Made by a program: the position numbers and the translations under genes. A DNA stretch of 64,000 nt from Bacillota bacterium (GTDB taxonomy: Bacteria; Bacillota; Dethiobacteria; DTU022; UBA8154): the NCBI GenBank assembly GCA_030656575.1, contig JAUSPO010000039.1, positions 8,724-72,723 of the forward strand. Direction: 5' to 3'. Positions 3,043-53,615 of this stretch are shown here, piece after piece. The notes below the pieces were generated by a model. The model had not been told where the DNA came from and did no database searches. It saw nothing but the letters and a program-made list of their open reading frames with translations. Within the stretch, counting starts at the first letter, position 1. Every line of letters starts with the position of its first letter.

Positions 3043-5213
3043 GTGTCACTTGATGAAATGCTAAGCGGTTTTCGCCAGGGCGATAATGTAGTCTGGCAGG
3101 TAGACAGTCTGGATGAATATACATTCTTCGCAGAGCCTTTTGTGAAAGAGGCTCTACTGGATAACGAAGACTGTGTTTACCTGAGATTTGCCCCTCACCC
3201 CCCCCATTGTCAGTCCCCGAAAAGGCCTGATCATGAAGAAAGTGGACCCGGGACGCGGCTTTACATATTTTGTAACCGAAATACACAGGATTATCAGGGA
3301 ACAGGTAGAGGCCAAGACAAAATTTTTTATCTTCGACAATTTATCGGCCCTCGTGGATGAGTGGGCTACAGATGAATTGCTTGCAAATTTCTTCCAGGTG
3401 ACATGTCCTTTTCTAGGCGAACTGGATACAGTGGCTTATTTTGCATTAACGCGTGGCAGGCATGCGAATAGTGCCGTTGCCCGCATACGGGATACTACCC
3501 AAGGTGCTGATAGATGTTTATCGTATCAAAGAAGTGATCTATGTTCATCCTTTAAAAGTTTGGGATCGATATTCGCCCCAGATGTTTTTACCCCATATCG
3601 TTACCGGAAAAACACTTTGGCCTGTTTTCCAAAGCGGTGAGGCCGCCGAGGTCTCTTCTGTGGCCAGGAAAAATTCCCATAGTGAAAAAACCTCTATTGC
3701 CCCATGGGATAGTGTCTACAAAAAGATTTTTCAATACAAAGATTCTGGTGAAAAGTCAGCGACAGTGGCCACAGAACTGCAGGCCCTGAAACAGGAATTG
3801 GCCAGAATGTTGATAGGTAGTCACGCCGAGTTTAACAAGCTGTCTGAAGCTTTTTTTACTTTGGGGGATTTATTGGGAATCAGGGACAGGATGATCGGTT
3901 CTGGAAGAATTGGGGGCAAGGCAGCAGGAATGCTGCTCGCCAGGAGGATCTTATTGGATCTGCCGGGTGAGATTGAACAGGACTTTTTAGCCGGTTCATT
4001 CCCGCCGGATATCTACGAACAATTTCGGAGCATGCTGGATTATTTCGGACAGGCACCGATCATTATCCGTTCGAGCAGCCTTTTGGAAGACAGCTTTGGT
4101 AACGCTTTTGCCGGTAAATATCTAAGCATTTTCTGCGCCAACCAGGGGGGGCCTGAGGAAAGGCTTAATGCTTTTTCACGTGCTGTAAAACTTGTCTATG
4201 CAAGCGCGCTGAGCCCTGAAGTCCTTTCCTACAGGCTCAGGCGTGGTCTTGGGGAATCTGATGAACAGATGGCTATCCTCGTACAGCGTGTCTCAGGAAT
4301 GCGCTACAGGCATTATTTCTTTCCGAACCTTCCGAACAGCCAGCTGCTATTTTCCTTTATGAAAGACGGATATTTGTTTGATCCTCCGTATTTAGACATG
4401 GAGACGGGTTCAGCAGGTAAACCGGTCTTAACATTTAACAGGCTGATCAGCAGAACTCCTTTTGTAAAAGTTATGGGTGAAATGGTAGGAAAATTGGAAA
4501 GAGCTTACGGACATCCGGTAGATACAGAATTTACAGCATTTGTGAATTCACGGGGCAGTTTGAATGTTAATTTACTCCAGTGTCGCCCCTTACGGCTGCC
4601 GGGCTTGTCAGGGCCGCTGAAGTTTCCTGAGCATATTCAATCACATCAGATTCTTTTTAAATCTATGAAGGTTATTAATGGTGGACTGATCAGTCAGATA
4701 AAATATATTATATATATAGACCCCAGACGTTATGCTGTCATAAGCTCAGTTTCCTTGAAAAGGTCTGTTGGCAGAATCGTCGGTGCCCAGAATAAACACC
4801 CGCTTCTTGTGGATGGTCAATTTCTGATGATGGGTCCGGGCAGGTGGGGGAGCAGTAATATTGACCTTGGGGTAAATGTAAGCTATGCGGATATTGATAA
4901 CACTGCTGTTCTTGTTGAGATTGCCCGTGAAGCATCCGGGCATGTGCCGGAGGTATCTTACGGCACGCATTTTTTCCAGGATCTTGTAGAAGGGCAGATC
5001 ATTTACCTGCCTGTTTATCCGGAACTTCTGGAAACTGCTTTTAATAATAGTTTCTTTGAAGATTCGCCTAACTCTCTGGAAGAACTCCTGCCGGGAAATG
5101 AACAGTTAAAGAGTGTGGTACACGTGATCAATATTCCTGCTGTAACTAACGGTAAATATGCCAAAGTCGTGGCCGACCCACAGACACAAAAGGCTGTTTG
5201 CTTCCTTGAGTAA
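3043..5213 (+). pseudogene. PEP-utilizing enzyme (pyruvate,water dikinase-like PEP/pyruvate-binding domain) with N-terminal KaiC/RecA-like domain lacking a P-loop; disrupted by two +1 frameshifts
   Basis: Three consecutive ORFs in frames 1, 2, 3 (3043..3360, 3188..3640, 3453..5213) read as one protein. The first shift coincides with a C8 homopolymer at 3198-3205. PPDK_N-like region (IIRSSSLLEDSFGNAFAGKY, DEQMAILVQRVSG) is in the last ORF. Confidence 0.6.
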
Positions 5214-5236
5214 CTATATAGTGAAGGGGAAATAAG

Positions 5237-5515
5237 ATGGAAAGCTATTATATTGTTACATTCGAAACTACCCATCATGCCCTGAAATTTGAGAAGACTC
5301 TCAAGGGGGAAGGAATATCTTTGACCCTTTTGCCGGTGCCACGGCGCCTCAGTTCCAGCTGCGGCATTGCCGCCAGGTTTCTCCCTGACGTTCTGCACAC
5401 GGTTAAGGAACTGATCGGTTGTCATGATCTGCAGTTGGATAAACTTTATCTTTTTGAGAATGAAAAGAATAATGTGAAATTTTACTCTGTAGAACTTCAG
5501 GCAGAGGAGGAATAA
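5237..5515 (+). CDS. DUF3343-family small protein (putative Se/S carrier-like)
   Basis: 92 aa; motif YYIVTFETTHHALKFEKTLK...LLPVPRRLSSSCGIAARF typical of DUF3343. Confidence 0.6.
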   Translation: MESYYIVTFETTHHALKFEKTLKGEGISLTLLPVPRRLSSSCGIAARFLPDVLHTVKELIGCHDLQLDKLYLFENEKNNVKFYSVELQAEEE

Positions 5516-9426: not shown

Positions 9427-10356
9427 ATGACCGAGTACAACGAAAAGGCAGTGGCCCGGAAGCGGCCGGTAAATATTGTTGCAATTGGGGCTATCTTAGT
9501 TATTTTGGCGTTGGGGACGGTTCTCCTGATTAATTTTCTTCCAGGTCAGAGTGAGGGCAAGAGTGGGGCAGCAGCTACTGTAAATGGTGAAGTAATCACA
9601 ATGGATGAACTTTATGAGGTTATGCTGAAAGAAGGCGGCAGGGATTTTTTAGACCGTCTTATTGCTAATCGCCTCATTCTCCAGGAAGGTGAAAAGTTAG
9701 GCATCACAGTTAGTGACGAGGAAATTGATGCGGAGATACAAAGTGTAATCAATGAGAATTTTTATGGTAATGTAGAAATTTTTCGTCAGGCAATAGAGCA
9801 GTACGGAACAACAGAAGAAGCTATCCGGGATGATTTATCAATAGAAATGGTTCTCCGTAAGATTGCCAAAAGCCAGATTGAAGTTACAGATGAGGTTGCC
9901 AGGGAGTATTTTTTGAGTAACCAGGGATTATATAACATCTCTGAACAGGTTGAGGCACGCCATATCCTGCTTGAAACTAAGGAGCAGGCTGAAGAGTTAA
10001 TACAGCTTTTAGATAGCGGCAGCGATTTTGCCGAATTGGCCAGGGAAAATTCTATAGACACTGTTTCCAGGGCGGATGGTGGTAAATTAGGATTTTTCGG
10101 AAGAGGAGAGATGGTCCCTGAATTTGAGAATATTGCTTTCAACCTTGCATTAAATCAACACAGTGATGCGGTAGAATCACAGTTTGGGTTCCATATTATT
10201 GAAGTTCTTGATCGCAACGCTGCTCGGGAAGTAAGCTATGAAGAGGTTCAGGATAAAGTTAAGGGAGACCTGTCCGAAAGGTTAGTGTCTGAGAAAATGT
10301 CGGAAATAATAAATTTGCTCTGGGAAACGGCAGATATTGACTACAAGTTATCGTAA
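9427..10356 (+). CDS. prsA: Parvulin-type peptidyl-prolyl isomerase / foldase (PrsA/SurA-like) with N-terminal membrane anchor
   Basis: N-terminal TM segment, then SurA-N-like region, then PpiC domain (HILL...FGFHIIEV). Confidence 0.75.
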   Translation: MTEYNEKAVARKRPVNIVAIGAILVILALGTVLLINFLPGQSEGKSGAAATVNGEVITMDELYEVMLKEGGRDFLDRLIANRLILQEGEKLGITVSDEEIDAEIQSVINENFYGNVEIFRQAIEQYGTTEEAIRDDLSIEMVLRKIAKSQIEVTDEVAREYFLSNQGLYNISEQVEARHILLETKEQAEELIQLLDSGSDFAELARENSIDTVSRADGGKLGFFGRGEMVPEFENIAFNLALNQHSDAVESQFGFHIIEVLDRNAAREVSYEEVQDKVKGDLSERLVSEKMSEIINLLWETADIDYKLS

Positions 10357-12093: not shown

Positions 12094-12132
12094 TATGCTT
12101 AACATCTGAGATATGTTTAACATGTGTAAGAT

Positions 12133-12163
12133 AAAAAAACTGCTCTTATAAGCAGTTTTTTTC
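12133..12163 (+). terminator. Rho-independent terminator AAAAAAACTGCTCTTATAAGCAGTTTTTTT (probably bidirectional)
   Basis: Perfect hairpin flanked by A-run and T-run. A near-identical hairpin recurs at 15081-15106, adjacent to another copy of the dispersed repeat. Confidence 0.65.
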
Positions 12164-12227: not shown

Positions 12228-12258
12228 GAGCCAGGGGGACGTTTCGCTTGGCTCAGCG
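12228..12258. repeat. Dispersed repeat GAGCCAGGGGGACGTTTCGCTTGGCTCAGCG (family copy)
   Basis: See 2912-2941 and 15108-15133. Flanked by the degenerate copies CCAGGGAGCCATGGGGGACGCAAACGTTTGGCCC (12171-12204) and CCCCTGGCCAGTCCCCCTGGTCAG (12295-12322). Confidence 0.7.
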
Positions 12259-12701: not shown

Positions 12702-14651
12702 TTAACTGGCTTTGGCCGCATATTTGTCTTTTATTGAATTAATAATATCCGGATCCATTAAGGTGGTAGTGTCACCGATCACTTTTCCTTCAGCTATATC
12801 ACGGAGGAGCCGTCGTATGATTTTTCCACTGCGGGTTTTAGGAAGTTCAGCTGTAAAGTAAATATCCTCCGGGCGTGCCAACGCCCCGATTTTACTGACA
12901 ACCAATTTTTTCAGTTCTGCGACGAGTTCATCCGATCCGTTATGACTTTCCTTAAGTGTAACAAAGGCAGAGACAGCCTGCCCCTTAAGTTCATGTTTCT
13001 TGCCAATTACAGCAGCCTCTGCTACTGCAGGGTGTTCCACCAGCGCGCTTTCTATTTCCGCAGTTCCAAGACGATGCCCCGAAACGTTGATAACATCATC
13101 TATTCTCCCAATACACCAGATTGAACCATCTTCGTCTTTCTTGGCTCCGTCACCGGCCAGGTATATCCCTTCGTACTGCTGCCAGTAAGTGCTGAGATAA
13201 CGTTCTGGATCTTTATAAAGGTTGCGAAGCATCGCCGGGTAGGGTGTATTAACTACCAGGTAACCCTGTTCACCAGGCTTTACAGGTTTCCCCTGTTCAT
13301 CAACAACATCCACGTCCACACCGGGAAATGCGCGAGAGGCTGAACCTGGTTTGAAGGAGGCGTCTCCCGGAAGAGGGGTGATCAATATCATCCCTGTCTC
13401 TGTCTGCCACCATGTATCCATAACCGGGCATTTTTCTCCACCAATATATTTGTAATACCACATCCAAACTTCGGGATTAATAGGTTCTCCCACTGAACCG
13501 AGGATGCGAAGACTGCTGAGATCATGTCCTGCCAGCCACTCTTCACCCCAGCGCATGAACATACGGATTGCCGTGGGGGCAGTATAAAAAATGCTTACTC
13601 CGTATTTTTCAATAATAGACCAAAAGCGGTTCTGGGCCGGGAAATCAGGAGTCCCCTCAAACAGCACGGTTGTAGCCCCATTGGCCAGCGGACCATAAAC
13701 AATGTAACTGTGACCTGTTATCCATCCGATATCCGCAGTGCACCAGTATACATCCTGCTCCTGGTAGTCGAAGATATGCTTGAATGTAGTGTGAACGCCC
13801 ACCATATAACCTCCGGTGGTATGAAGAATGCCTTTGGGTTTTCCGGTCGTTCCGCTGCTATAGAGGATAAAGAGGGGGTCTTCGGCATCCATGACTTCCG
13901 GCTCGCAATATAACGCTGCATCATTGATCAGATCTGAGTACCATAGATCCCTGTCCTGTTCCATGTGAATATCCTGCCCGGTCCTATTAACAACTACCAC
14001 GTTTTTAATGCTTTGGCAGTTGCTGCCCTCCAGTGCTTTATCCACATTGTCTTTAAGAGGGACAACTTTGCCCTTCCTGTATCCTCCGTCGGCAGTAATC
14101 AAAACCTTGGAATTGGAATCCTCGATCCGGTCTTTCAGGGCGCCGGGACTAAAACCTCCAAAAACTACGCTGTGGGGCGCGCCAATCCGTGCGCATGCCA
14201 GCATGGCTATGACAGCCTCAGGGAGCATTGGCATATAAATTGTAACCACATCGCCTCGTTTTGTTCCCAGTTTCTTAAGGACGTCAGCAAATTGGTTAAC
14301 CTCGCGGTAAAGGTCCTGGTAAGTTAAGACACGCCTGTCGCCCCGGTCGCCTTCAAATATAATAGCTGCTTTATTTTTTCGCCAGCCGGAGATGTGACGG
14401 TCAACGCAGTTGAAGGATGCATTTAACTTGCCATCGTTGAACCATCTGTAAAAGGGTGCCTTACTATCGTCAAGGATTGTATTCCACTCTTCAAACCATG
14501 AAATATTTTTACTCATTTCGGACCAGAAATCCAGTCGGCCATGTCGGGCCTTTTCCCGCAGCTGATTGGTATTTTGTTTTACCGTTTTATCTGTAATGGG
14601 ATTTGCTATTTCCTGGTAAGGGACCGGGGTGTTATTCTGTTTTTCTTTCAT
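12702..14651 (-). CDS. acs: Acetyl-CoA synthetase (AMP-forming acetate--CoA ligase)
   Basis: 649 aa; AMP-binding signature ([11 protein letters not shown]), length and C-terminal Lys motif typical of Acs. Confidence 0.9.
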
Positions 14652-15080
14652 TAAATCTGCCCTCCTAAAAATGAATTATTTAAACTTGGGAAGGATTTAT
14701 CATTGATAAAAAGCATCGTATGCGGTTGACGAAAACTCTTAACAGTATCCAATATACCTCCCTTCGAAGTAAGTAAGCTATTTTTTTGCCCCGTTCCATG
14801 ATACAAACATTTATTGAGTTCTGACCTATATTTCTACAACGCTATCCATAAACCCTTTATATTTTTGTATTAAATATCGCGTTTTTCCCTACAAATTATT
14901 GTTATTTCTGGTTTATCTCTACTAAATAAAGACCTTACCCTATGTTTAATTATCATTAAAAGCCGTACTGTCGAGGTTTGGGTGGATGTTTTCTTTTCGT
15001 TTATGTGGTAGGGTTTTTCCAAGCTATAAAAATAATAAATATATTCATAAACCATTTAATAGATAAAAGAATAAGCATTA

Positions 15081-15106
15081 AAAAAACTGCTCTTTTTAGC
15101 AGTTTT
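15081..15106. terminator. Hairpin AAAAAACTGCTCTTTTTAGCAGTTTT (terminator-like, paired with dispersed repeat)
   Basis: Same hairpin as 12133-12163 with one loop change. Lies immediately 5' of the repeat at 15108. Confidence 0.5.
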
Positions 15107-15107
15107 C

Positions 15108-15177
15108 TGAGCCAAGCGAAACGTCCCCCTGGCATTTATTTACGTCCCCCTGGCATTTAATGGCCGGGGGGACGTGG
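15108..15177. repeat. Dispersed repeat (reverse-complement copy) CTGAGCCAAGCGAAACGTCCCCCTGG, followed by two further CGTCCCCCTGGCATTTA units and GGGGGGACG
   Basis: Reverse complement matches CCAGGGGGACGTTTCGCTTGGCTCAG (12231-12256). Overlaps the 3' junk tail of the glnA fragment. Confidence 0.7.
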
Positions 15178-15580
15178 GTTTTAGTATGCGGCTAAGTAGT
15201 TTTTTAGTTCCCAGTTCTTTTAATTCCCCCAATACCTTCTTTAGGACAACTCTGGAACAACCTGGAAAAGGGAGCCCATCCGCACCATAAACGTCGCAGA
15301 TCATTCTTGCCGTTTTACCTCTTCCAATATTTCGCCAGGGGAAAATGGCAAAGGTTGAAGGATCCGGGGCAAGACACATATCTGACTCATCAACCCTGAC
15401 AAAACCTTTTACTGATGAACCGTCGAACATTACCTGGTTATTTAATGCCTCATCGAGCTGTTTAGGAGAGATGGCCACATTTTTCAGCTTACCAAAGATA
15501 TCCGTAAACTGCAGTCTTATAAAATTAACATTCTCCTTTTCAACCAGATTTCTGACATTATCACCACAATATTCGTCCAA
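15140..15580 (-). pseudogene. glnA: Glutamine synthetase type I, N-terminal ~125 aa fragment (truncated)
   Basis: N-terminal GS beta-grasp domain (FIRLQFTDIFGKLKNV...MFDGSS...DPSTFAIFPW...LKKVLGELKELG). Similarity stops abruptly; the ORF then reads through the dispersed repeat into a stop. The remaining ~320 aa are absent. Confidence 0.7.
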
Positions 15581-15752
15581 AACAAAAATCAGTTCCTATT
15601 ATTTTTTTTTTGTAAAAAGTAAAAAACACTGGCTAAAACCAGTGTCAATCCTAGAATACCATATATTGATATTTACCTCAAACGGCTTGTTCGGAGTAAA
15701 ATGCATAGTAATAGGTTACTATCAGTCAGAGGGCGACAGGTCTCTTATCTTT

Positions 15753-15912
15753 AATATTCGTAACTACTCAGCCATTAGGTTACTTAGTCGCTCGGGACGC
15801 AAAGCATGGGGAGGGTTCCATCGTCTTCTCTTCGGACCTTCGCTACGCTACGGTGACGCTCGAACCGTCCCCATGCTTCACTTGTCTTTTATCTGAGTAG
15901 TAACTAATATTC
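15753..15912. repeat. Nested palindromic element X1 (~160 bp). 19-bp terminal inverted repeats AATATTCGTAACTACTCAG / CTGAGTAGTAACTAATATT enclose an inner hairpin CATGGGGAGGGTTC...GAACCGTCCCCATG
   Basis: TIR identity 17/19. Internal long hairpin. A second copy lies at 23968-24134. No ORF inside. MITE/PATE-like. Confidence 0.6.
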
Positions 15913-15955: not shown

Positions 15956-16312
15956 TTAAATTCGTGAAGGTAAAAAAAGCCTGCCTATTTTAGAACTGTT
16001 TTCCTGGATGGAAGCAAGACTTTCTTCGGAAAAGTAGAGCCTGTTATCTTCAGTAACTTTAACAACCTGAACGTTTAGCAGGAAGTCTAGAGCCTGAGGT
16101 TTGTAGTCGCGCCTTTTGAACATGGGGCCGATCAATTTTTTGGGAAGGATTCCAAGTTCTTTGCTGGTTTTAGCATTATTGACTTCTAAAGCGTTATTCT
16201 TCCGAAATATTTTTACGACCGCAATAATAGCACTCCTTTGAAGATAAATAGAGAGTCCAAAAAAAATAATTACCATCATCATTAAGAGAAAAAGCACTTT
16301 GATTATTTCCAT
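15956..16312 (-). CDS. Hypothetical membrane-anchored protein
   Basis: 118 aa with N-terminal TM helix. Confidence 0.4.
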   Translation of the reverse strand: MEIIKVLFLLMMMVIIFFGLSIYLQRSAIIAVVKIFRKNNALEVNNAKTSKELGILPKKLIGPMFKRRDYKPQALDFLLNVQVVKVTEDNRLYFSEESLASIQENSSKIGRLFLPSRI

Positions 16313-16454: not shown

Positions 16455-17651
16455 ATGGAGAAAGATCCTTTTTCTGAATTTAGGGTATCCGTTGAATTGG
16501 ATGGAGAAAAACGCATCTCCGGGAATAATCTTTTTGACCTTTTGGAGAAGATTACGAGATATGGCTCCATCAGCAGAGCTGCTTCCGAAATGGGTATTTC
16601 TTACCGTTATTCCTGGGGGTTAATTCAGGCTGCCGAAAAAGCTTTAGGGCTGGCCCTTGTGAATAAGCAGATTGGCGGATATGAAGGTGGGGGAACATCT
16701 CTCACCCGGGAAGGTAAGGAACTTCTGGGCCAGTACAAGGAGTTTAAAGGTGAAGTAGACACCCAGCTAAACCGCTTTGTAAAAAAAGCAAAGCAGGCAA
16801 AGAATGCCGCCCATCCAACAAAGGATGGTTCTGGCCAAGGGGACGGTTCTTCCGGCCAGATTTTCCAACGGCACCTGCTGCTGGCCAGCACCATGGAGCC
16901 TGTGGAAACAGGATTGCTGGATGTTCTGGAAGGGGCTTTTTATCAGTCCTCCGGTGTACTGGTCAGGCACATCGCCCTTGGAAGCGGGCGTGCCCTGCAG
17001 ATTGCCAAAAGTGGACGAGTGGATATGGCCCTTACCCATGCCCCGGAACTTGAAGAGGAATTTATGGAGGAAGGGTGGGGGGAGTCCAGATTTCCCGTCA
17101 TGGCCAATGATTTTGTCCTTGTGGGCCCCGTTTCCGACCCTGCAGAAATTGCTAAAATTGACCCTTCTGGCGGCACAAAAGAAGCCTTTCGTAAGGTCGC
17201 CCTTTCACGTTCGCCTTTTATCAGCCGCGGTGATCATTCGGGAACTCACTTGAGGGAATTGAAAATATGGGAGTCTGCCGGTATTTCTCCTGAAGGAGAA
17301 TGGTATTTAAAATCTTCCGGTGTGGTCGGCAATTTGGGAATTCTGCGCCTTGCTCTGGAGAAAAAAGCCTATACCCTTGTTGACAGGGCTACCTTTCTTT
17401 TATCCCGCAGCTTTGAAAAAATGATCAGGATCTTTACCGGCACTGAAGAAGGTAATGCCCTGACCGGCGAATTGGAAAACATTTTTTCTTTAACCCTTGT
17501 GAACCCGGAGCGCATACCGACGGTTAATTCTGAAGACGCCCTGCTCTTTGCCGGGTGGATACAAGGGAAAGAAGCACAGCAGGTAATTGCCGGTTTTGGA
17601 CAGGAAAGCTTTGGGAGGCCGCTTTTTTCAATAGTGAACCCGTTCAGCTAA
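16455..17651 (+). CDS. TunR-like tungstate/molybdate-responsive regulator: ModE-type N-terminal HTH fused to a TupA-like periplasmic-binding-protein-fold domain
   Basis: N-terminus (LFDLLEKITRYGSISRAASEMGISYRYSWGLI) matches the ModE HTH. The C-terminal ~250 aa align colinearly with the TupA encoded at 20785..21630 (DAxLTHxP, FVLVGP, RGDxSGTH, AYTLxDRATxL). Confidence 0.7.
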   Translation: MEKDPFSEFRVSVELDGEKRISGNNLFDLLEKITRYGSISRAASEMGISYRYSWGLIQAAEKALGLALVNKQIGGYEGGGTSLTREGKELLGQYKEFKGEVDTQLNRFVKKAKQAKNAAHPTKDGSGQGDGSSGQIFQRHLLLASTMEPVETGLLDVLEGAFYQSSGVLVRHIALGSGRALQIAKSGRVDMALTHAPELEEEFMEEGWGESRFPVMANDFVLVGPVSDPAEIAKIDPSGGTKEAFRKVALSRSPFISRGDHSGTHLRELKIWESAGISPEGEWYLKSSGVVGNLGILRLALEKKAYTLVDRATFLLSRSFEKMIRIFTGTEEGNALTGELENIFSLTLVNPERIPTVNSEDALLFAGWIQGKEAQQVIAGFGQESFGRPLFSIVNPFS

Positions 17652-20493: not shown

Positions 20494-20570
20494 ATAACGG
20501 TGCCTGGCACTTAACTTATTAACTTATTGTCACCATTGCGGATTCCTGACCCACTCTATAAAAGTTTTCG

Positions 20571-23967: not shown

Positions 23968-24134
23968 GAGACATGGGGACGGTTCGAAAGCGCCGGGATA
24001 AACCGGCATACATGGGGACGGTTCGAGCGTCCCCGTAGCGCAGCGAAGGGCCGAAGGGAAGACGATGGAACCGTCCCCATGTCTCCGGTCCCCATGTCTC
24101 ACTTATGCCTACCTGAGTAGTAACTATTATTCTA
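23968..24134. repeat. Nested palindromic element X2: second copy of X1 with duplicated CATGGGGACGGTTCGA arm and hairpin core inverted relative to X1
   Basis: Right flank GAACCGTCCCCATG...TCACTTATGCCTACCTGAGTAGTAACTATTATTCT is colinear with the X1 right end. The ~43-nt core is the reverse complement of the X1 core (about 4 mismatches). Confidence 0.6.
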
Positions 24135-24403: not shown

Positions 24404-24577
24404 ATGCCAATAATAGGAAAAATATATTACCCTTTTATTTGTTTTAAAGGAGAAAAGTATGCTATTTTGCTTCATGGTTTCGAAGAGAAAGATAACAAAA
24501 AGCAGAGCAAATATAGTTATGATAAAGCTATTACAGTTGCGCAAAAGCGTTTTGAGGAGGTAGTTAAGGATGATTGA
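24404..24577 (+). pseudogene. HigB/Gp49-like (RelE/ParE superfamily) toxin, C-terminal ~55 aa remnant only
   Basis: Translation ...IYYPFICFKGEKYAILLHGFEEKDNKKQSKYSYDKAITVAQKRFEEV matches the C-terminal half of Gp49-like HigB toxins (conserved LLHGF.KK core). The N-terminal half is absent. Overlaps the downstream antitoxin start by 8 nt. Confidence 0.5.
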
Positions 24578-24941
24578 TTTAAATCATTTGCCTGACGCCT
24601 GGAGAATTATTTATAAGTTGGATGGGGAAGAAGGCAACGAAAAAGATGGGTTATATGAAATCTATTATCAGATTTCTACTGCTATTTTTAAGTATAGACT
24701 TAAACATAATCTTTCCCAAAAAAAACTTGCAGAAAAGCTTGGTGTTACTCAAGCAATGGTTTCAAAACTTGAGAGTGGTGATTATAATTATACAATTGGG
24801 CAGCTTTGGAAAGTATCGCAAAAACTTGGATTTAAACTTAATATAGAACTCGAAGAAGAAACTGAAGATATTACAGAAGATTATATTCAAAAAGATAACC
24901 AGATAGATGTGATTCATTCGATAATGGTGGAGGGCTCATGA
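24570..24941 (+). CDS. XRE-family HTH antitoxin (HigA-like) with acidic C-terminal tail
   Basis: HTH LSQKKLAEKLGVTQAMVSKLESGD. Acidic C-terminal extension (ELEEETEDITEDY...). 4-nt overlap (ATGA) with the downstream chaperone gene. Confidence 0.65.
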   Translation: MIDLNHLPDAWRIIYKLDGEEGNEKDGLYEIYYQISTAIFKYRLKHNLSQKKLAEKLGVTQAMVSKLESGDYNYTIGQLWKVSQKLGFKLNIELEEETEDITEDYIQKDNQIDVIHSIMVEGS

Positions 24942-25378
24942 AAGCAGAGGAGATTCTTGCTGAATTCCAATTTCTTGGAAATAGAGTAAGCAGCTTAAAT
25001 TTTGATGCCAGAGTAATCGAGGCAAAAGCACAGCGCGCTGAGCTTTCATTTGAATTTGACTACAATGTGAAAGCGGTAGAAGAGCACGAGAATAAGTTAA
25101 TTGGAATAATTGAGTTTATTGTTAAGGCCAAAGCAACTAGCAAAAAGAAAATATTTTTCGAAATTGACTTGGTCATGGAAGGTGCTTTTGCTTATGATGC
25201 AAAGACTGATACTGAAGGTAAGTTTCAAGACATGTTAGAAATAAATGGCATAGTAACGTTATCGCAGATATCCAGAGCATATATCTTGAGTGTAACGTCT
25301 CAATCCGGCATTCCGCCTGTAAAAATGCCAATGATTAATGTTATAAAATTAAGAGAGAGGAAGAAAAAAGAGGACTAA
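24938..25378 (+). CDS. SecB-like chaperone
   Basis: 146 aa. Colinear with E. coli SecB: FQIQRIYTKDISFE ~ FQFLGNRVSSLNFD; GTFPQLNLAPVNF ~ GIPPVKMPMINVI. Same operon as the HTH antitoxin, typical of TAC systems. Confidence 0.6.
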   Translation: MKAEEILAEFQFLGNRVSSLNFDARVIEAKAQRAELSFEFDYNVKAVEEHENKLIGIIEFIVKAKATSKKKIFFEIDLVMEGAFAYDAKTDTEGKFQDMLEINGIVTLSQISRAYILSVTSQSGIPPVKMPMINVIKLRERKKKED

Positions 25379-47940: not shown

Positions 47941-48046
47941 TTTTGCGATTATTATAATTATATCATAAAATTAAAACTTATCTACTATCATTTTATGTGG
48001 CAGCGAGTGGCTCAGGAATCCGCAATGGTGATAATAAGTAAATAAG

Positions 48047-49591
48047 TTAGGTGACAGGCACCGTAAGCTGTTCTTGAAGTATCTTTACTCCTGCATCCAT
48101 TCCCTGAGCCCCTAGAAGAATAAGAGCACTTCCTGGCGCTGCGACCTCAAGTGCCTGTGCCAGGGCATCCTTCAGCTCAGGATAATGACATGGGTATAAG
48201 CCTGAAGAGATAACTCCACTAAAAAAAGCATCTTCCTCTTCGGGAAGGACCTGGTTTCGCTCATCGACATGGCTTATACTCGAGGTGGAAAAAAAGTATT
48301 TAATCTGCAGGTCTTTTACCCATTTGCCCAGGGCTTTACCATTGTCTTCGTTCACTTTTACTCCGCGCCTACCGCGGATTGCGTAAACTAAGACCAATTT
48401 GTTAGGGGAAAGACTCCTGATTGCATTAAAAACAGCATCGATGCTTCCAGAATTCATGGCAGTATCATCAATGACCTGCAGGCCAGCCAGATTATGTATC
48501 TGCATCCTCCGTTCCACTCCCCGGAAGGAAGCCAGGCCATCGGCAACGCTTTCTTTTCTTAGACCTGAAAGCAATGCCCCTGCCGCTGCTGCAGCAGCAT
48601 TTGAAACATTGTGCATACCGGGGAGAGGAATACGCAGTGGGTATGTTTCTTCCAGAGTGAGACTTTCCATTAATTCTCTATTTCTAACTTTTAATAGAAA
48701 AGAGCTTCCCTGTTCTCCCAAAATTGTGTCTTGGATCATGAAATCGCAGGAAGGAAGGGTGCCAAAATAGAAACACTTGCTCTTTGTTGAAAAACTTAGT
48801 TTCTGTAAATACCCGTCATCTTTATTGATCAGCAAAAACCCCTCAGGTTTCACCAGGGATGCAAGTCTTCCTTTTGTGGCGGCATAGTCTTCAATATTCT
48901 TGTGGAAATCAAGATGATTTGGAGAAATGTTTGTAAATATTGCTCCCTGAAAAGTAATGCCATCAACCCTCTTAAGGGCAAGTCCGTGAGAAGATACCTC
49001 CATTGCAGCATGGCTCACTCCGCTTTCAACCATAAGGTGCAGATACCTCTGAAGTTCAAGAGAATCTGGAGTGGTAAGGCGCGACAGCCAGGTTTGACGG
49101 GCACAATGGACTTCTACAGTTCCGATCATACCGGAGATTAGTCCGGCTGTTTCATATATTTCTCTTAACATACTGGTAGTAGTCGTCTTGCCGCATGTTC
49201 CTGTCACGCCGATAAGACTGAAATGCTGAGAGGGTTGGCCGTAAAAATTAGCTGCCATCAGTGAAAGGGCCAGCCTCGAATCAGGGACATGGATCCATAT
49301 GGCAGGAGAAGGTAAATAAGGCTTTTCTTCGGCAACGATGACTGTCGCTCCTCTACCCAGAGCCTCGGGTATGAACCTGTGCCCATCGTGTTTCAGCCCT
49401 TTTACGGCAACGAAAACGTTGCCGGGTTTTATCTGGCCAGAGTTGTAACCGATTCCGCTAACAGAGATATTTTTCCAGTGGTAGAGGGAACTGTATTTAA
49501 GGCCCGCTGTAATGTCTTGCAACTCTAAGGAATGCATCAAGCCACCTCTTTTTCTAAACGCTTTTAGTTTCTCAAAAAAGAGATAGATCAT
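48047..49591 (-). CDS. Mur ligase family protein (MurE-like UDP-MurNAc-tripeptide synthetase fold)
   Basis: N-terminal MurE-type domain (IKPGNVFVAVKGLKHDGHRFIPEA), P-loop GVTGTCGKTTTT, Mur ligase C domain. Confidence 0.65.
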   Translation of the reverse strand: MIYLFFEKLKAFRKRGGLMHSLELQDITAGLKYSSLYHWKNISVSGIGYNSGQIKPGNVFVAVKGLKHDGHRFIPEALGRGATVIVAEEKPYLPSPAIWIHVPDSRLALSLMAANFYGQPSQHFSLIGVTGTCGKTTTTSMLREIYETAGLISGMIGTVEVHCARQTWLSRLTTPDSLELQRYLHLMVESGVSHAAMEVSSHGLALKRVDGITFQGAIFTNISPNHLDFHKNIEDYAATKGRLASLVKPEGFLLINKDDGYLQKLSFSTKSKCFYFGTLPSCDFMIQDTILGEQGSSFLLKVRNRELMESLTLEETYPLRIPLPGMHNVSNAAAAAAGALLSGLRKESVADGLASFRGVERRMQIHNLAGLQVIDDTAMNSGSIDAVFNAIRSLSPNKLVLVYAIRGRRGVKVNEDNGKALGKWVKDLQIKYFFSTSSISHVDERNQVLPEEEDAFFSGVISSGLYPCHYPELKDALAQALEVAAPGSALILLGAQGMDAGVKILQEQLTVPVT

Positions 49592-53168: not shown

Positions 53169-53615
53169 TTATTTTAATCTTTTTAAAATCAATTCATCAT
53201 GCTTGGCTACTTCAACTTCTATGCGGTCTAGTTTCTGTGAAGTTTGTATGTACCCGTCAAAAAGAGCAGCTAATTTCTGCCCGTGTTGATTTTCGATTTT
53301 GATAACAATATCTTTAATAAACTTAACGTCCGTTTTAACATCCGACAATTCAGTTTTAACGCTGGCTACTTCCGTTTTAACACCTGATAATTCAGTTTTA
53401 ACGCTGGCTACTTCCGTTTTAACACCTGATAATTCAGTTTTAACGTTAGCTACTTCCGTTTTAACACCTGATAATTCAGTTTTCATGCTAGCTACTTCCG
53501 TTTTAACACCTGACAATTCAGTTTTAATATCTGCAAATTCAATTTTTGTGACCATGTTGGTTTCCATACCAGCGATTTTTTGCAGTATCGTTTCTAATAG
53601 TTCCCTATCTTTCAT
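53169..53615 (-). CDS. Coiled-coil repeat protein with five tandem 14-aa repeats (TELSGVKTEVASVK)
   Basis: Encoded by 42-bp tandem DNA repeats at 53331-53540 with near-identical central copies. Confidence 0.55.
   Translation of the reverse strand: MKDRELLETILQKIAGMETNMVTKIEFADIKTELSGVKTEVASMKTELSGVKTEVANVKTELSGVKTEVASVKTELSGVKTEVASVKTELSDVKTDVKFIKDIVIKIENQHGQKLAALFDGYIQTSQKLDRIEVEVAKHDELILKRLK
53331..53540. repeat. 42-bp tandem repeat x5 (CGTTTTAACACCTGATAATTCAGTTTTAACGCTGGCTACTTC) inside the 53169..53615 CDS
   Basis: Copies 2 and 3 differ by 1-2 nt. Confidence 0.8.

Follow-up and report, generated by a model that had tools for sequence, protein, structure and literature searches.

We examined a 64,000-nucleotide stretch of DNA from a Bacillota bacterium (NCBI GenBank assembly GCA_030656575.1, contig JAUSPO010000039.1, positions 8,724 to 72,723), referred to here as the window, which contains two nested palindromic elements, X1 and X2. 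These odd palindromes can now be filed under a known kind, namely repeats resembling REPs (repetitive extragenic palindromes) and REPINs (REP doublets forming hairpins) that are tied to tyrosine transposases of the RAYT (REP-associated tyrosine transposase) and TIRYT types. With a probability of about 0.72, we favor the reading that X1 and X2 are non-autonomous repeats, that X1 is a REPIN-like doublet nested in a MITE shell (MITE, miniature inverted-repeat element of the transposable kind), and that X2 is a compound copy in which the doublet has undergone a flip of a rare sort.

Both elements lie where a preliminary description of this DNA placed them, at 15.75 and 23.97 kb, with X1 spanning positions 15752-15912 and X2 positions 23968-24124 of the window. 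Each is organized around a hairpin, CATGGGGACGGTTC / GAACCGTCCCCATG, that encloses a 43-nt core common to the two. If up to two mismatches are allowed, the window contains GAACCGTCCCCATG 11 times where 0.33 would be expected, and the outer repeat three times where 0.02 would be. A repeat search of the window pairs 15794-15875 with 24011-24092, two 82-nt segments that are 88% complementary.

X1 begins with the 8-mer TAATATTC (15752-15759), which recurs perfectly at its far end (15905-15912), directly outside the terminal inverted repeats (TIRs). The intervening parts, all read on the plus strand, are the 12-bp left TIR GTAACTACTCAG (15760-15771), a long left arm (15772-15804) in which, 14 nt upstream of the main arm, there is one more GGGAC unit, the left hairpin arm CATGGGGAGGGTTC (15805-15818), the core in the orientation CATCGTCTTC...GACGCTC (15819-15861), the right hairpin arm GAACCGTCCCCATG (15862-15875), a short right arm CTTCACTTGTCTTTTAT (15876-15892) and the right TIR CTGAGTAGTAAC (15893-15904), which is complementary to the left TIR at 11 of 12 positions. 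The left hairpin arm contains, with one mismatch, an 11-mer that we term motif B, GGGGACGGTTC; the right hairpin arm contains its inverted form, B'. The core itself comprises an inner stem and a TTCTCTTCGG bulge. Among the loci retrieved in this study, each labeled by an L and a number, L178 has a left arm like the long arm of X1 (22/31), and the short arm resembles the right arms of L178, L232 and L142. X1 had been credited with 19-bp TIRs matching at 17 of 19 positions; that length does not hold, and the similarity resolves into the 12-bp TIR plus a perfect 8-bp target-site duplication. Small, non-coding and multi-copy, with TIRs and a target duplication of fixed length, X1 can thus be identified as a MITE of 145 bp that is intact. 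Its minus-strand neighbors are an open reading frame (ORF; 15956-16312, minus) and the likely terminator of that ORF, a terminator-like hairpin at 15625-15646 (minus), and X1 separates the two.

X2 is less regular. On the plus strand it consists of an extra outer left arm CATGGGGACGGTTC (23972-23985), a 25-nt insert with a small CCGG/CCGG hairpin (23986-24010), an inner left arm, again CATGGGGACGGTTC (24011-24024), the 43-nt core (24025-24067), which is the reverse complement of that of X1 and is thus assigned to the minus strand, the right arm GAACCGTCCCCATG (24068-24081), a 15-nt tandem duplication, GTCCCCATGTCTCCG / GTCCCCATGTCTCAC (24073-24102, as 24073-24087 plus 24088-24102), and the remainder of the TIR-side arm (TTATGCCTAC) with a single TIR, CTGAGTAGTAAC (24103-24124). 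The duplicated left arm noted previously is present, and it is accompanied by the 15-nt duplication on the right, with which it pairs in the fold (23972-23985 with 24086-24099). X2 has one TIR, no partner TIR and no target duplication. Whether flipped or not, it is an old, compound, decayed copy. Neither element encodes a protein, as first described, and the ORFs that overlap X-family elements are mechanical ones only.

The opposite orientation of the two cores, the central claim of the preliminary description, is borne out by alignment. The X1 core aligns to the reverse complement of the X2 core with a score of 66 (z = 22.7; 0 of 500 shuffles score as high), and 39 of 43 positions are identical; on the same strand no alignment is found (score 8, z = -0.9). 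Folded as single-stranded DNA, X1 reaches -24.5 kcal/mol (z = -3.75) and X2 -47 kcal/mol (z = -8.27), in both cases far better than shuffled sequences.

X1 and X2 belong to a large family. A single metagenome scan yields the core pattern at more than 120 loci, many of them at contig ends; these provide 127 distinct core instances, about four of which are chance matches in coding DNA. The core is also present in Desulfoscipio geothermicus and in metagenome-assembled genomes (MAGs) of Desulfocucumis, Pelotomaculum and Syntrophomonadaceae. Copies come in three forms. Type 1 elements measure 141-157 bp and have the TIRs of X1, and in at least 10 of them, X1 among these, the 8-bp duplication is perfect; type 2 has the TIRs TACTACAGCGAAA / TTTCGCTGTAGTA and 4-bp duplications of the YTAR kind; and bare units, (GT)GAGACAT-B-core-B'-ATGTCTC(AC), have neither TIR nor duplication. 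In 11 loci two X1-type TIRs are paired at a distance of 141-157 bp, in no case with a gene between them. A search of 1.7 Mb of retrieved DNA for a parent insertion sequence (IS) finds no pair of X1 TIRs 0.4-6 kb apart, and BLAST of X1 against plasmids returns no match. An extra GGGGAC unit is present in 14 of 111 left arms and 3 of 88 right arms; with the tandem arrays described below (L021, L080 and L016), extra B units are a trait of the family.

Across 60 distinct aligned copies, stem positions pair in 83% of cells, and the stem covariation score is 0.102 compared with 0.055 in shuffles (0 of 500 as high). The covarying positions in the core are alignment pairs 40-60, 42-58, 45-55 and 48-52, the first of which occurs as AU in 21 copies, CG in 13 and UA in 9. 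The alignment shows that the hairpin architecture is kept by selection. The genes neighboring family copies are unrelated housekeeping genes. We also considered a recurrent neighboring protein, and discarded this candidate when an all-against-all BLAST of the ORFs in 118 loci returned only housekeeping families such as ABC ATPases and two-component systems.

Motif B leads from the hairpin to a transposase. The pattern GGGGANGGTTC-N30-60-GAACCNTCCCC is found at more than 118 genome loci, where a rough estimate of chance expectation is tens of hits. Besides many Bacillota, their sources include MAGs classified as Actinomycetota, Bacteroidota, Omnitrophota, Elusimicrobiota, Spirochaetota, Atribacterota and a cyanobacterium, with Propionibacteriales, Prevotella and Halomicronema among the carriers outside Bacillota; the interiors of these loci are palindromic yet mutually unrelated, and tandem motif arrays are frequent. 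Exact B sites number 608 in 1.74 Mb of retrieved DNA, a count that gives no unbiased density, since the loci were chosen for the motif.

The connection to a transposase emerged from a search for B...B' pairs 0.4-4 kb apart. In L021, an ORF (4676-5452) lies between a tandem run of B (four or more exact units plus near-copies) and four B' units; in L088, one B and one B' bracket an ORF at 3626-4429; and in L124, an ORF at 94-852 is bracketed by the variant motif GGGGACGGGGTT. Five homologues were then picked by name, from a Desulfitobacteriaceae MAG, Desulfosporosinus fructosivorans, Sporomusa malonica, Geosporobacter and Petroclostridium, and in all five the motif, exact or with one or two bases changed, is present at both of two positions, as B about 65 nt before the start codon and as B' about 6 nt after the stop codon. 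A transposase gene of Acetoanaerobium has the identical arrangement. In total, B or GGGACGGTTC flanks the gene on both sides, in inverted orientation, in eight Bacillota loci, and L124 is a ninth with the variant. Downstream of the Desulfosporosinus fructosivorans gene, the 18-mer GAACCGTCCCCATGTCTC is identical to the X-family arm.

The B-flanked proteins are about 260 residues long and match Pfam Y1_Tnp at residues 11-123. Against NCBIfam NF047646 (REP-associated tyrosine transposase; cut-off 80 bits) two of them score 86.5 and 88.2 bits and the L021 protein 69.8 bits. The C-terminal part of the L088 protein has weak helix-turn-helix (HTH) matches, to HTH_19 and HTH_7 at 225-264, that fall below the Pfam cut-offs. 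A protein search yields 5551 relatives at E <= 1e-10, and among the matches listed those with an organism name are all from Bacillota. Given that B directly flanks Y1 transposase genes in inverted orientation, the X core is best regarded as a REPIN-like doublet of the RAYT/TIRYT world. The B-linked clade appears to match the type known as TIRYT, TnpA-Y1 subclass 2.1 or RAYT group 1.

Several features accompany these transposase genes. In L243, L244 and L245, a promoter-like arrangement can be made out by eye about 65 nt before the transposase start: a TTGAC -35 box coincides in part with the 3' stem of the repeat unit lying upstream (...TTTTGTCTTGAC...), and a -10-like hexamer lies about 17 nt beyond that box; because the repeat unit overlaps the promoter, the transposase could repress its own promoter by binding the repeat. 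Head-to-tail motif arrays with periods of 21, 23 and 34 nt are seen in L021 (4440-4563 and 5700-5790), L080 (4831-4981) and L016 (74-186). In these arrays runs of B are followed by runs of B', and in L016 and L080 the spacers are direct repeats, such that only the 11-mer switches strand. In L124, a soda-lake contig that also holds a type-1 X element, the transposase gene is flanked by the variant repeat GGGGACGGGGTT(A/G)YTGACAC at 30-45 and 877-930; the observation also takes in the flanks of L159 and L193. The variant repeat of L124 and the X element from the same metagenome have the 5' context GTGCCA-N-GGGGACGG in common, which hints that arms may co-evolve with the local transposase.

Conserved stems also raise the alternative that the hairpin is primarily a functional RNA, such as a 3' untranslated region (3'-UTR) stabilizer, a processing site or a small RNA, whose spread on mobile shells is incidental. 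The compensatory changes that preserve the stems, the conservation of the core across different shells and the location of X1 between a gene and its terminator would all suit such a role, as would the orientation of the core among copies located between tandem genes, which is 22 in one direction and 7 in the other. On the other side, compensatory change is equally expected of a single-stranded DNA transposition substrate, the neighboring genes are unrelated, B also flanks transposase genes, and the 22-to-7 bias fits strand-specific (lagging-strand) Y1 transposition in genomes with a gene-strand bias as well as it fits an RNA-level role. In addition, neither element matches an Rfam family at E values up to 10 beyond chance level, and the whole window scanned at the gathering threshold contains only a tRNA-Val, so that the match to a known structured RNA family contemplated at the outset did not materialize. 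We therefore regard a primary RNA function as improbable.

A number of further identities were tried and rejected. An origin from tRNA or tmRNA failed because ARAGORN finds only the tRNA-Val, and the X2 string GGTTCGAG, although T-loop-like, is out of register, with its GA absent in other families. Group II intron domain V (GAGCCGT...ACGGTTC), 5S rRNA word matches (CCCCATG, CGTAGCGC), ECF-sigma and sigma-54 promoter motifs and the Mpi site of Bacteroides, ARACGTWCGT, were each dismissed, either for an unsuitable arm order or spacing or because Rfam gave no match. CGTC-tagged REPs (PMC3733652) do not fit in stem sizes, loop sizes or taxa. Literature searches with the motif and its sub-strings retrieved only unrelated primer and sgRNA matches and no paper citing the 11-mer, and no description of the 43-nt core family or its MITE shells was found in the searchable literature.

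Whether the X2 core is flipped relative to its own arms, and not simply inserted the other way round, is a separate matter. Across the family, left flanks were compared with reverse-complemented right flanks. The best match is on the same side in 134 of 138 informative flanks and on the opposite side in four, all from the pair L159/L193; a further 17 flanks, those of the window's own elements among them, are too weak to call. L159 and L193 are one locus sampled in two metagenomes; their flanks are collinear on the same strand (about 95% identity on each side, 251/265 on the left and 656/690 on the right), and the cores between them are oppositely oriented. In L159, the proximal left arm is the exact complement of the right arm, GCGACAC...GTGTCGC.

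For X2 itself the arms must be read individually. The flanks beside the hairpins of X1 and X2 are nearly palindromic, with left and right arms interrelated; the earlier claim that X2 shares its right flank with X1 in the same orientation accordingly rests only on the arm beyond about 10 nt, and the flip relative to the arms is likely, not certain. Classing the arms by semi-global alignment was abandoned as ambiguous, since left and right arms are related. X2 could then be an ordinary copy in the opposite genomic orientation that has lost its far end and retained its left arm within a near-palindromic shell. Reversed, X2 reads TIR, 19-nt spacer, B and forward core, which is the layout of the abundant type-1a copies (a 19-nt left spacer starting GCAT, with ATGCC by the TIR). 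It has the extra GGGGAC unit 15 nt from B that is mostly a left-arm trait, and its far side holds AGTAAAATAA, which looks, by eye, like the part of right arms nearest the TIR (AGTAAAACAA in L178). Set against this, in the closest relatives, X1, L178 and L232, the arm ATGTCTCACTTATG...TTTTACT-CTGAGTAG follows the forward core, whereas in X2 it follows the reversed one, and the TIR-side arm of X2 is identical to the L232 right arm at 14 of 14 positions (ATGTCTCACTTATG, z = 9.3). The X2 arm also scores 25 with the X1 right arm on the same strand versus 19 with the reverse complement of the X1 left arm, its TIR differs from the right TIR of X1 at one position and from the left TIR at three, and the left arms of X1 and L178, at 31-36 nt, are unlike it. 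On balance we judge it probable that the X2 core is truly flipped relative to its arms, and an unflipped copy unlikely.

An artefact of assembly or library construction, with hairpin-induced chimeric reads in a short-read MAG, would account for X2 differently. The window does derive from a MAG, and the Logan unitigs of SRR13727525 break inside X2: they are identical to the window up to 23997, where one ends, and from 24055 onward, where the next starts. The second unitig nevertheless spans the junction ...AGGGAAGACGATG-GAACCGTCCCC-arm-TIR, in which the core end GAAGACGATG is joined to B', the right arm and the TIR. An independent Logan contig thereby confirms positions 24055-24067 and all that lies to their right, the 15-nt duplication included, which means that the right junction of X2, specific to its orientation, is not confined to the MAG assembly. 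Moreover, 4 of the 43 core positions differ between X1 and X2, so X2 was not copied from X1, and a second flip is found in unrelated assemblies. An artefact is scarcely credible.

The preliminary description had also raised a site-specific invertible segment. In that scenario a recombinase acting at the 14-bp inverted repeats would flip the core and thereby switch expression or an RNA. Inverted repeats do bound an asymmetric segment, and both core orientations occur within one genome and, in L159/L193, at one orthologous locus in two metagenomes. Programmed switching is nonetheless unlikely in view of the constant orientation relative to the arms, the lack of a recombinase gene adjoining X1 or X2, the lack of a promoter-like site within either element and the size of the segment; 43 bp is very short for synapsis by known invertases. 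The flipped copies carry further rearrangements as well. We assign this scenario a very low likelihood. One prevailing core orientation with X2 as a lone rearranged copy is essentially what the family presents, together with the second, independent flip in L159/L193. Constant orientation with rare exceptions means that flips look sporadic, and the reversed center of X2 looks like an occasional rearrangement, not a genetic switch.

Taken together, these results suggest how X1 and X2 may have arisen. Their inner part consists of two REP units, (GAGAC)AT-GGGGACGGTTC-(CATC)GTC, inverted around an asymmetric spacer of about 29 nt to form an imperfect hairpin of about 85 nt, and B would be the cognate repeat of a Bacillota clade of Y1/HUH REP-associated tyrosine transposases with a C-terminal HTH. 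A transposase of this kind encoded elsewhere in the genome may bind and cut the single-stranded hairpin, maintaining and spreading doublets and arrays. To our knowledge, Y1 transposases of the IS200/IS605 family make no target duplication. The 8-bp duplication of X1 is foreign to such enzymes, and the doublet therefore seems to be carried in a DDE-type MITE shell; the 145-bp shell, with its 12-bp TIR and 8-bp duplication, would have been inserted by a DDE transposase acting in trans. The earlier suggestion of a MITE or PATE (palindrome-associated transposable element) derived from an IS200/IS605-type element is thus half right, because the shell is MITE-like and the center linked to a Y1 (HUH) transposase; it is the outer TIR and duplication that point elsewhere. 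In X2, one TIR would have been kept, one flank would have gained an extra B arm and a small hairpin and the other a 15-nt duplication, and the doublet would have been reversed relative to the retained arm. The flip itself would be a rare, unprogrammed inversion between the 14-22-bp inverted arms, by replication template switching or cruciform processing. This route fits the L159 arm, which has been converted to the complement of the other arm, and hairpin-mediated template switching, already named in the preliminary description, stays a good candidate. Alternatively, the doublet may have been excised and re-inserted by the tyrosine transposase. Any effect on neighboring genes, such as 3'-UTR stabilization, would be secondary.

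A bolder proposal is that the HUH transposase itself inverts the doublet, cutting identical B motifs on opposite strands of the hairpin or cruciform and rejoining them crosswise, with the HTH reading the 11-bp motif and the enzyme possibly regulating itself. We consider this quite a long shot. If true, it would mean that a domesticated Y1 enzyme inverts DNA and generates B arrays, and that an HTH reads an 11-bp motif invariant in many genera and possibly several phyla.

Several observations weigh against the nested-doublet reading that we favor. As the 8-bp duplication is not made by Y1 enzymes, two different mobilizing enzymes must be assumed, and neither the TIR-pair search of the retrieved DNA nor the plasmid BLAST revealed the DDE partner. 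By tblastn, the 64-kb window contains no transposase gene of this kind; B was absent from the flanks of distant homologues in Collinsella and Legionella (plasmid records), the link being seen in Bacillota only. The 22-to-7 bias relative to tandem genes could indicate a role at the RNA level. Finally, the 19-nt spacing of X2, the ATGCC beside its TIR and its extra GGGGAC unit are more typical of left arms, and its arm was called a right arm on short, partly palindromic sequence.

The window contains other GGGGACG-type sequences: there are 19 GGGGACG sites, compared with about 5 in shuffles. A solitary exact motif B, GGGGACGGTTC, lies at 9513-9523 (plus). Another exact copy (ggccaaGGGGACGGTTCttccggcc, 16839-16849, plus) is located within the ORF at 16455-17651 (plus), where it is in frame and encodes a Gly/Ser-rich linker, KDGSGQGDGSSGQ, at about residue 128. 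The linker joins an HTH_1 domain (27-87) to a PBP_like_2 domain (132-317); a repeat seems to have inserted into the gene and to act there now as the connection between domains. The window also has a second kind of GGGGACG repeat, GCCAGGGGGACGTTTCGCTTGGCTCAG, at 12230-12256 (plus), with other copies at 2288-2309, 2914-2939 and 15107-15133. The copies at 12230-12256 and 15107-15133 form a perfect 27-nt inverted repeat that brackets an acetate-CoA ligase gene (12702-14651, minus), which is also bracketed by near-identical terminator hairpins at 12132-12159 and 15079-15106. The adjoining ORF (15140-15580, minus) contains the N-terminal glutamine synthetase domain only and is a truncated gene ending in the repeat cluster. 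The further second-type repeats at 2288-2345 and 2914-2939 include a short tandem run, three copies of CCGTCCCCTTGGCTCAC.

Other features of the window include a 60-nt inverted repeat unrelated to the X family (20497-20556 versus 48005-48064, 27 kb apart and 92% complementary) and, at 53284-53546, nine in-register copies of a TTTTAAC-rich sequence with a 21-nt period, which is probably a repeat within a coding region. Downstream of X2, a small operon (24570-25378) encodes an HTH_3 (XRE-type) protein and a weakly SecB-like protein, a pair reminiscent of toxin-antitoxin-chaperone modules.

The finding is real but largely ordinary, and leaves the current view of such systems unchanged. Three points may be of interest to specialists in mobile DNA. 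The dispersed repeats of the HTH-bearing transposase branch have so far been reported as "moderately abundant" or not found, whereas here the family is large, and its 11-nt motif is unchanged across many Bacillota genera and also occurs in MAGs assigned to other phyla. The doublet is found bare and in at least two different MITE shells, so that one selfish element appears to hitchhike on another. Lastly, the center of the doublet can flip, with the orthologous pair L159/L193 as one clean example.

The X family can be compared with several known systems. Like the bacterial MITEs Correia/NEMIS, RUP, Nezha and Bcr1, X1 is a short (145 bp), ORF-free, multi-copy and intergenic element with 12-bp TIRs, an 8-bp duplication and a long hairpin. 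It differs from these in that its conserved, structured center is a transposase-linked doublet, found in two or more shells that differ in their TIRs and in the length of their duplications, and in that no parent IS was identified for the shells. The flip resembles hairpin-loop inversion or quasi-palindrome template switching (the Ripley model; non-coding hairpin flips of chloroplasts), in which close relatives differ in the direction of a short loop bounded by inverted repeats, and the L159 arm, made the perfect complement of the other arm, bears the mark of having been copied from it; a route through the transposase is another possibility. Invertons likewise have inverted repeats bounding an asymmetric segment observed in both orientations, but X elements have no adjacent recombinase or internal promoter, their segment is much too small, and about 97% of informative flanks keep one orientation.

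There is also a close likeness to the REP/REPIN-RAYT systems, reportedly the subject of work by Nunvar (2010), Bertels and Rainey (2011) and Ton-Hoang (2012). As in those systems, the X family consists of short extragenic palindromic units arranged as inverted doublets that form a hairpin, the copies are numerous and occur in clusters and tandem arrays with stems kept by compensatory change, and the unit flanks, in inverted orientation, a gene for a Y1/HUH REP-associated tyrosine transposase. There are also differences. The conserved element is the 11-mer GGGGACGGTTC, and the GTAG head 5' of the palindrome is not encountered, which favors the TIRYT-type branch over classical GTAG REPs. In gene-flanking units, B sits in the loop of a small unit hairpin. 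B is identical in many genera, whereas classical REPs are species-specific. The B-linked transposase has a C-terminal HTH, and many doublets lie inside MITE shells with TIRs and target duplications.

RAYT-like genes flanked by inverted repeats sharing GGGGWSAS have been described as TIRtrons or TIRYTs, some of whose repeats form dispersed families (PMC3733652, Di Nocera 2013). TIRYTs correspond to RAYT group 1 and to TnpA-Y1 subclass 2.1, whose members have HTH or DnaA_C-like domains at the C-terminus, and no REP-like families were found near subclass 2.1 genes (PMC6006769, Quentin 2018); RAYT group 1 also occurs in Clostridia (PMC5581495, Bertels 2017), and the REPIN concept is set out in PMC3337134. 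GGGGACGG agrees with GGGGWSAS at 7 of 8 positions (consensus from PMC3733652) and lies at fixed distances from the genes, about 65 nt upstream and about 6 nt downstream. The B-linked genes resemble TIRtrons and TIRYTs in their inverted, GGGG-led repeats at fixed distances, in combining a Y1 core with a C-terminal HTH or DnaA_C-like extension, in having Clostridia among their hosts, and in that some flanking repeats form dispersed dimer families and clusters. They differ in the exact motif and in the large size of the dispersed family described here.

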